64,000 bases of DNA, from contig CAVPIW010000017.1 in NCBI GenBank assembly GCA_963705105.1, forward strand, positions 32,001 to 96,000, given 5' to 3'. How positions within the stretch are numbered: the stretch's first letter is position 1; every line of letters begins with the position of its first letter. The translations under genes and the position numbers were made by a program. Under the pieces are notes generated by a model that was given only the letters and a program-made list of their open reading frames with translations, was not told where the DNA came from and did no database searches. Source of the DNA: an uncultured Nitrospiraceae bacterium (GTDB lineage: Bacteria > Nitrospirota > Thermodesulfovibrionia > Thermodesulfovibrionales > Dissulfurispiraceae). This document shows positions 25,777 to 26,033 of the stretch, one piece after another.

Positions 25777-25919
25777 CCGTGCTTCCAGCACGGTTACTTG
25801 GCGCCGCCTCAACCACTCTTGGCAGGCGGTTTCTCTTCGGTGGTGCCTCCAGCACCTTCCTTTTTCGCGCCTCAACCACTCTGGGCCGGTTTCTTCTCTT
25901 CAGTGGCGCTTCCAGCGCC
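25777..25919 (-). promoter_or_regulatory. Three SECIS-like hairpins (25919-25905, 25856-25842, 25793-25777)
   Basis: GGCGCT-GGA-AGCGCC, GGTGCT-GGA-GGCACC and CCGTGCT-GGA-AGCACGG, each starting exactly 15 nt after an in-frame UGA. Confidence 0.8.
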
Positions 25920-26033
25920 GTCTTTCTTGCCCGCTCAGGCCGACGAGCAGCCGTAGAGCCCGAGGGTCGTGCCGGCCAGAAGACTGGCAATGCCGATTCC
26001 GGCGAGGACCTTCTTGAGATGCTCCTTGTCCAT
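25794..26033 (-). CDS. Selenocysteine-containing RiPP precursor peptide (selenobiotic/SbtA-like), 79 aa, 3 Sec
   Basis: GGAGGTG RBS; MDKEHLKKVLAGIGIASLLAGTTLGLYGCSSAUAGKKDGAGSATEEKKPAQSGUGAKKEGAGGTTEEKPPAKSGUGGAK-TAA with U = TGA at codons 33, 54 and 75. Confidence 0.88.

Follow-up and report, generated by a model that had tools for sequence, protein, structure and literature searches.

Is each of the three in-frame UGA codons of a short gene in the window (the whole stretch of 64,000 nucleotides that was analysed) decoded as selenocysteine (Sec, U) with the help of its own downstream RNA hairpin, as an earlier note on this DNA had proposed? The gene, sbtA, reads from an ATG at 26033 to a TAA at 25796-25794 on the minus strand, and its three in-frame TGA codons correspond to residues U33, U54 and U75 (Table 1). 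The leader is hydrophobic and appears to end in a lipobox-like Cys29. We are confident that the three hairpins are standard bacterial SECIS elements, one per UGA of this sbtA gene upstream of sbtM.

Table 1. Features of the sbtA locus and of the second sbtA/sbtM pair of the genome (positions are those of the window unless a contig is given; loop bases are bracketed and energies are for the hairpins alone).
Feature	Position	Strand	Remarks
sbtA, 79-residue precursor peptide	25794..26033	-	translated with TGA=U; TIGR04081 match; Shine-Dalgarno-like AGGAGG upstream
Sigma-70-like promoter candidate upstream of sbtA	26150..26178	-	11/12 consensus matches with TG; consensus match only
UGA 1 = U33, context S-S-A-U	25935..25937	-	
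UGA 2 = U54, context Q-S-G-U-G	25872..25874	-	
UGA 3 = U75, context K-S-G-U-G, TAA stop four codons on	25809..25811	-	
SECIS-type hairpin 1, GGCGCT[GGA]AGCGCC, 6 bp, codes G-A-G-S-A	25905..25919	-	-8.7 kcal/mol
SECIS-type hairpin 2, GGTGCT[GGA]GGCACC, 6 bp, U-G closing pair, codes G-A-G-G-T	25842..25856	-	-7.2 kcal/mol
SECIS-type hairpin 3, CCGTGCT[GGA]AGCACGG, 7 bp, entirely 3' UTR	25777..25793	-	-9.6 kcal/mol
Two 63-nt direct repeat units	25805..25930	-	76% identical; 73% in UGA-to-UGA phase
sbtM, radical SAM/SPASM maturase, 539 aa	23816..25435	-	TIGR04082, 694.4 bits, cut-off 350
Second sbtA/sbtM pair, same genome	G000:C12:186083-186400 (loci L037/L046)	-	100-residue precursor

Position and form of the hairpins

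The three hairpins are placed alike. The earlier note had claimed a stem 15 nt past each UGA, which holds for all three stems, and had placed the third right after the TAA, where it indeed lies entirely beyond the stop (25793-25777). Counted from the UGA (0-based), the loop G sits at +21 in hairpins 1 and 2 and at +22 in hairpin 3, the register of hairpin 3 being off by one base, and a repeat finder reported three 14-nt copies at spacings of 63 and 64. As claimed, the stems differ in sequence while pairing is kept: in loop register they show two compensatory changes (C-G to T-A and G-C to C-G) and one wobble (T-A to T-G).

Folding energy did not set any one hairpin apart. ViennaRNA predicted all three stems in 48-nt segments taken from the UGA (-10.2, -10.6 and -15.2 kcal/mol). 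Against shuffled sequences none of hairpins 1 to 3 was significant singly (z of -0.86, -1.05 and -1.05), with 44, 31 and 32 of 200 shuffles folding equally well. It is the position of the hairpins and the comparison with other genes that speak against a chance origin. An Rfam scan of 25300-26600 gave two matches (E ~0.45, far below gathering scores), which we took as chance.

The hairpins fit the published bacterial SECIS consensus. In the available text of PMC13188914 this has a loop of 3-9 nt, a stem of 4-16 bp, a G among the first two loop positions, a spacing of 16-37 nt from UGA to loop and an energy limit of -7.5 kcal/mol. The GGA loops, stems of 6, 6 and 7 bp and spacings of 21, 21 and 22 nt found here are all within the published ranges, and the likeness extends to the 3-nt G-led loop on a 6-7 bp stem 21-22 nt from the UGA and to the loop pattern N1-G-G-N-N2, in which N1 and N2 are paired. 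Taken alone, hairpin 2 misses the energy limit by 0.3 kcal/mol, although the stretch folded in the published model may differ from ours; compared with the consensus as given in that text, nothing essential differs.

A member of the SbtA/SbtM family

By its family matches, the gene at 26033-25794 is an ordinary further member of the known SbtA/SbtM selenopeptide family. An NCBIfam scan covering seven window proteins matched the sbtA peptide to TIGR04081 with 43.1 bits (cut-off 30.5), on residues 1-26 only; the peptide, short and of low complexity, was without a Pfam family match. The sbtM gene is 358 nt downstream on the same strand and, as in the known system, both genes are above the curated cut-offs. 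According to the available text of PMC9204691 and PMC11002830, a SECIS behind the recoded codon of SbtA was noted by Haft and Basu, the peptide probably has at least two Sec, and the SbtM of another family member forms a thio(seleno)oxazole in vitro; the chemistry was demonstrated on a Gly-Cys/Sec motif (PMC9204691). A 2026 inventory (PMC13188914), the only paper found when the literature was searched by TIGR04081 or selenobacteriocin, gives TIGR04081 as 'Selenobacteriocin' with the motif SGUG and two Sec. Both the system and its SECIS elements have been described before, and the hairpins very likely work by the standard bacterial SECIS mechanism.

The likeness to the described system thus includes a UGA with a SECIS downstream and at least two Sec. 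The gene here differs in having three Sec rather than the two of the PMC13188914 table, in the Ala that precedes its first Sec, and in the lipobox-like Cys that ends its leader, a feature not mentioned in the available text of PMC9204691 and PMC11002830. U54 and U75 are in S-G-U-G (the family motifs being S-G-U-G or G-G-U-G) and U33 is in S-A-U-A; among the 50 sbtA genes described below, Ala precedes 5 of 110 U. The second sbtA of the genome (G000:C12:186083-186400) also has three UGAs; it is without a lipobox-like Cys, and its last UGA abuts TAG, with the hairpin of that UGA in the 3' UTR.

Conservation of the hairpins in homologous genes

Hairpins follow most lone UGAs of the family. Searches with SbtM gave 28 loci from named genomes and matches in 10/61 and 51/301 related genomes, part of which were retrieved as loci. 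A leader HMM run on 66 loci found 55 sbtA genes, 16 loci being without one; removal of five exact duplicates left 50 genes, including sbtA at 25794-26033 and the second copy of the genome. These have 110 UGAs in total, with 0, 1, 2, 3 and 4 UGAs in 1, 9, 21, 17 and 2 genes, and three Sec are common (17/50; four Sec in 2). We scored a hairpin where a G-led loop was found at +15 to +24 with at least 4 bp and an energy of -4 kcal/mol or lower. By this rule a hairpin follows all three UGAs of sbtA at 25794-26033, 56 of 64 internal UGAs and 35 of 36 terminal UGAs (those at most 15 nt before the stop), giving 91/100 lone UGAs overall, versus 155 of 3322 control codons within sbtA genes and a background of 4.4% among 4000 sampled TGA of the genome. 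UGAs with another UGA within eight codons were different: none of ten carries its own hairpin. Clustered at 75% identity, the set shrank to 37 genes, in which 44/49 internal, 24/25 terminal and 0/7 closely spaced UGAs had a hairpin. The proposal of one hairpin per UGA therefore stands for sbtA at 25794-26033 and fails for the family as a whole, in which the ten closely spaced UGAs are without hairpins of their own.

Where Cys replaces U, the hairpin was kept at three of six terminal sites and at neither of two internal sites. An all-Cys paralog in L031, beside an sbtM, has lost all three hairpins together with the spacer motif.

Several relatives arrange UGA and hairpin differently. Six loci (L009, L010, L038, L039, L043 and L051) have two UGAs 3-5 codons apart and a single hairpin 27-33 nt from the first UGA, which both UGAs probably share as a SECIS and which falls within the published 16-37 nt. 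In L028:2460-2762 and L035:1117-1329 the nearest strong family-type hairpin of a UGA is that of the next UGA, 45 and 54 nt away, respectively, outside the published range; L031:1879-2184 has the arrangement of L028, with the hairpin of the next UGA nearest. L035 (U67/U69) and L052 (U62/U64) have a C-terminal U-x-U and a single hairpin, which lies at +18/+19 counted from the first UGA and at +12/+13 counted from the second; here the second UGA may be a real stop.

RNA pairing, protein motif and the meaning of the UGAs

The two hairpins inside the coding sequence encode Gly- and Ala-rich residues, and the G-A-G-S-T motif might be kept for the protein, for instance for recognition by SbtM, with the hairpins a by-product of codon choice. 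The Ala and Gly-rich context is nearly invariant, and GC-rich Gly, Ala and Ser codons pair readily: synonymous redraws keep all five pairs in 24% of cases for hairpin 1 and 8% for hairpin 2, making this a weak test for sbtA at 25794-26033 taken by itself. The sbtA stems also share a sequence core that is absent from the genome's other selenoprotein hairpins, and selection beyond SelB binding is possible. We anchored 62 of the 64 internal hairpins via their 5' residues alone and redrew synonymous codons 2000 times with the residues fixed; all five core pairs are kept in 55 of the 62 coding hairpins, versus a mean of 5.5 and a maximum of 17 in the redraws. The first Gly codon is GGT or GGC in 46 of 46 cases and never GGA or GGG, which make up 195 of 605 Gly codons elsewhere in sbtA genes. 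The loop codon specifies Gly in 41, Val in 19 and Asp in 2, and only its first G is common to all 62. The third base of codon 1 and the first base of codon 5 are T-A in 39 and C-G in 8 of 47 non-redundant hairpins, with no other combination, so that a synonymous base in codon 1 determines Thr versus Ala at codon 5. The stem core recurs in untranslated copies, and the all-Cys paralog, although beside an sbtM, is without the spacer motif. Conservation for the protein is therefore a very improbable explanation of the hairpins, and the claim of the earlier note that RNA structure dictates the residues G-A-G-S/G-A/T gains support from the synonymous redraws.

Covariation extends to the whole stem. 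We aligned 81 distinct hairpins (54 coding and 27 untranslated), omitting nine of the 100 lone-UGA sites that had no anchor or a 4-nt loop. Paired bases filled 95.5% of cells versus 22-50% in slid controls, and all six pairs had two-sided changes; these figures are tilted towards structure, since the untranslated rows had been selected with the hairpin rule and related genes are not independent.

The UGAs might instead be true stops, leaving a 32-residue product or a pseudogene, or might encode Trp or Cys in a recoded genome. The match to TIGR04081, confined to the leader, would fit a short product. But in 49 of 50 homologs the aligned motif contains one or more in-frame TGA codons (Cys takes single positions in some homologs and every position in one), the family is listed as a selenoprotein in reviews (PMC9204691 and PMC13188914, in the text available), and the genome has the full Sec machinery, with TGA at catalytic Cys positions of known families. 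We give this explanation next to no weight.

Selenocysteine apparatus and further candidate Sec sites in the genome

The genome (G000) has tRNA-Sec, and selA, selB and selD are each above cut-off; selD itself has one in-frame TGA. We assembled 24 further candidate Sec sites. In 20 of them the TGA lies inside a family match: family searches supplied four (SelD, MvhD and two formate dehydrogenases), and the remaining 16, out of 20 fetched regions, have a Pfam match. L091, a fetched region that lacks a Pfam match, was left out of scoring. In this set, which was chosen by protein context from lists that also displayed the downstream DNA and is thus not blind, 16 of the 20 family-supported sites have a hairpin by the rule, with the loop G at +17 to +24; the DsbA-, PCYCGC-, RtcB- and RseC-like sites lack one. 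Of the four sites without family support, two have a hairpin. Unrelated hairpin spacing or loops in other selenoprotein genes, which the earlier note had named as evidence against its reading, are not what we found, 16/20 sharing the hairpin type. A stricter, sbtA-type stem pattern has 43 matches among the 157,857 TGA of the genome, six of which are the UGAs of both sbtA genes; it matches none of the other selenoprotein sites.

An in-frame TGA is at a Cys-like position in RtcB (G000:C12:322015 (+), L087) and RseC/MucC (G000:C16:45705 (-), L089), both without a hairpin by the rule, and in a NuoB-like subunit (G000:C5:32942 (-), L079), which has one; another is in the N-terminal CxxC of a NiFe hydrogenase large subunit (G000:C10:51332 (-), L072), also with a hairpin. 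These four are absent from the table of PMC13188914 in its available form. Two adjacent cytochrome-like selenoprotein candidates (G000:C6:766176 and C6:767824 (+), L081/L082) have P-D-G-U, and a candidate with M-M-U-G-C-P (G000:C14:183516 (-), L088) has a clear hairpin; all are without a Pfam match. When paralogs forming Sec/Cys pairs were sought in the genome by BLAST, a repeated intergenic element dominated the output (825 matches), which was then filtered by coding score.

How the three UGAs would be decoded

The SECIS reading, and with it the RNA-level support for recoding that the earlier note had claimed, rests on covariation among homologs, the loss of hairpins in the all-Cys paralog, the Sec machinery and the 16 of 20 other selenoprotein sites. 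Against it are the eight of 64 internal UGAs that lack a hairpin by the rule and the three of six terminal Cys codons that keep one. From established SelB biology, SelB with Sec-tRNA would bind the G-led loop 21-22 nt past each UGA and Sec would be inserted, three times in turn. The last Sec is four codons before the stop, which would place its hairpin in the 3' UTR, and the two coding hairpins would impose the residues G/S-A-G/V/D-S/G-T/A. SbtM would then turn every Sec by oxidation into a selenooxazole that includes the carbonyl of the residue before it, judging from the in vitro work on the other SbtM; at U33, the preceding Ala is a point against this step, since the demonstrated chemistry was on the Gly-Cys/Sec motif. 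A 63-nt tandem duplication would carry UGA and hairpin together in any phase.

With the UGAs read in this way, sbtA would give the full 79-residue, three-Sec product, whereas standard translation would end at 32 residues. One bacterial mRNA would be decoded as Sec three times within 130 nt, an arrangement that could guide multi-Sec expression constructs, and the family is a clean natural case of RNA structure setting protein sequence. The hairpins leave the known SECIS mechanism unchanged and do not reveal the role of the SbtA product.

Hairpin 3 and the end of the gene

A SECIS past the stop codon of a C-terminal Sec is in print for DUF466/KCU-star (PMC4607533) and SaoC (bioRxiv 2022.07.06.499078), in which, from the text available, a hairpin follows the UGA and the stop comes at once or soon after, as here; the difference is that hairpin 3 is the last of three in one short mRNA. 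A glutaredoxin-like gene of the genome (G000, C2:31215) also has a hairpin beyond the stop for a C-terminal UGA.

Hairpin 3 could instead be an intrinsic terminator or a 3' stabiliser that lowers sbtM expression, its position after UGA 3 being incidental. RiPP operons commonly yield precursor in excess of maturase, which would suit a terminator. The hairpin begins immediately past the stop codon and, with seven pairs and five T within the following eight bases, fits the terminator consensus; for this reason it is not pure proof of a SECIS. However, a T tail is rare among the homologous terminal hairpins (4 of 35), and a terminator scan found 6 such sites versus 3.1 +/- 2.0 in shuffles. Terminal loops hold their distance to the UGA (loop G at 19-23 nt) and not to the stop (3-17 nt), a contrast carried by five genes with tails of 0-6 nt. 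RNA-run contigs X2 and X3, from two studies, span hairpin 3 and reach 25730 and 25745, although these may be library DNA, and a stronger GC-rich hairpin is further downstream, at 25727-25692. We consider a terminator alone highly unlikely; a SECIS that is at once a weak terminator in sbtA at 25794-26033 is less far-fetched but still improbable.

The X1 contig covers 25801-26111 with no difference, and the word share of the RNA runs may stem mostly from the repeated intergenic element. No cover of sbtM (23816-25435) was found in the three RNA runs, which are contigs found via the sbtA stretch, so this absence has no bearing on expression ratios. The GC-rich hairpin at 25692-25727 (-), strong and ~65-100 nt past the sbtA stop, is without a T tail and is possibly a 3' stabiliser; two RNA-run contigs stop just before it.

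The 63-nt repeat

The middle unit of sbtA probably arose by a 63-nt tandem duplication, as sequence comparison suggests. Each 63-nt unit contains a single hairpin together with a Lys/Glu/Pro linker and the UGA that follows. Of the repeat described in the earlier note, two complete units with these parts are present and a third is not, the third element being a terminal module; Tandem Repeats Finder reported no array. Among 31 units of 17-27 codons, the mean identity between genes is 59% (95th percentile 71%), versus 73-78% for the three unit pairs within genes. Unit 2 is closest to unit 1 (73%, next best 70%), and unit 1 is equally close to a unit of L013 (73%). Homologs sharing the U-AGKKDGAGS start (L013 is one) contain a single full unit plus a terminal U. 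A length of 63 nt is nothing special in the family, where UGAs are spaced by anything between 2 and 56 codons. The idea of a cassette expandable by duplication is plausible and has modest support, given the closeness of unit 2 to unit 1 and the tie of unit 1 with L013.

Leader, export and a possible function

A G/S/A-Cys is at residues 23-34 in 25 of 50 sbtA genes by pattern match, and its codon is always TGT or TGC, never TGA. Four loci (L036, L039, L064 and L067) have two sbtA genes each, one with a lipobox-like Cys and the other without. Export of SbtA, lipidation at Cys29 and metal binding are a speculative idea drawn by analogy with bufferins (PMC11626156) and with lipoprotein-pathway RiPPs (PMC13056109). 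Bufferins are 5-thiooxazole RiPP metallophores with Sec-pathway signal peptides (PMC11626156). As a comparison of how they work, the likeness lies in thiooxazoles made from Cys and a precursor with a signal-peptide-like leader; the differences are that bufferins are made by MNIO enzymes, not radical SAM enzymes, and have no selenium. The available text of PMC11626156 and PMC13056109 does not mention SbtM. Extended by this analogy, SbtA might be a lipid-anchored, exported selenooxazole metallophore and a selenium counterpart of bufferins, the number of binding sites varying through duplication or deletion of the UGA-plus-SECIS unit (0-4 Sec per gene), with half the family lipoprotein-type and half soluble-type, sometimes adjacent, and with some relatives decoding a UGA by a SECIS 45-54 nt off. 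Taken jointly, we regard these proposals as tentative and more probably wrong than right.

Surroundings of the locus

A palindromic intergenic element of ~210 nt is between sbtA and sbtM, at about 25450-25660 of the window, with some 200-400 blastn matches per position across the genome, and is MITE- or REP-like. Judged by resemblance, similar sequence is near 22000, 22800, 26200-26430 and 27900-28800 of the window. Just downstream of the promoter candidate, at 26108-26150, are AT-rich dyads of the form ATAG-N7-CTAT, whose likeness to a LysR/OxyR-like box is no more than a resemblance. Such a dyad is upstream of 8 of 50 sbtA genes, versus shuffle maxima of 3-5; the genes are partly kin and we make no claim from this count.

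Elsewhere in the genome, 23 tRNA genes are arrayed at G000:C4:10181-12340, on a single contig; their style and count may reflect foreign DNA in the assembly or a tRNA island. Within the window, 29155-35447 encodes Exosortase H and its associated membrane protein, unrelated to the sbtA hairpins, and, next to these, a repeat-rich protein of 1730 aa whose C-terminal tail is of the VPTxxEWG type.
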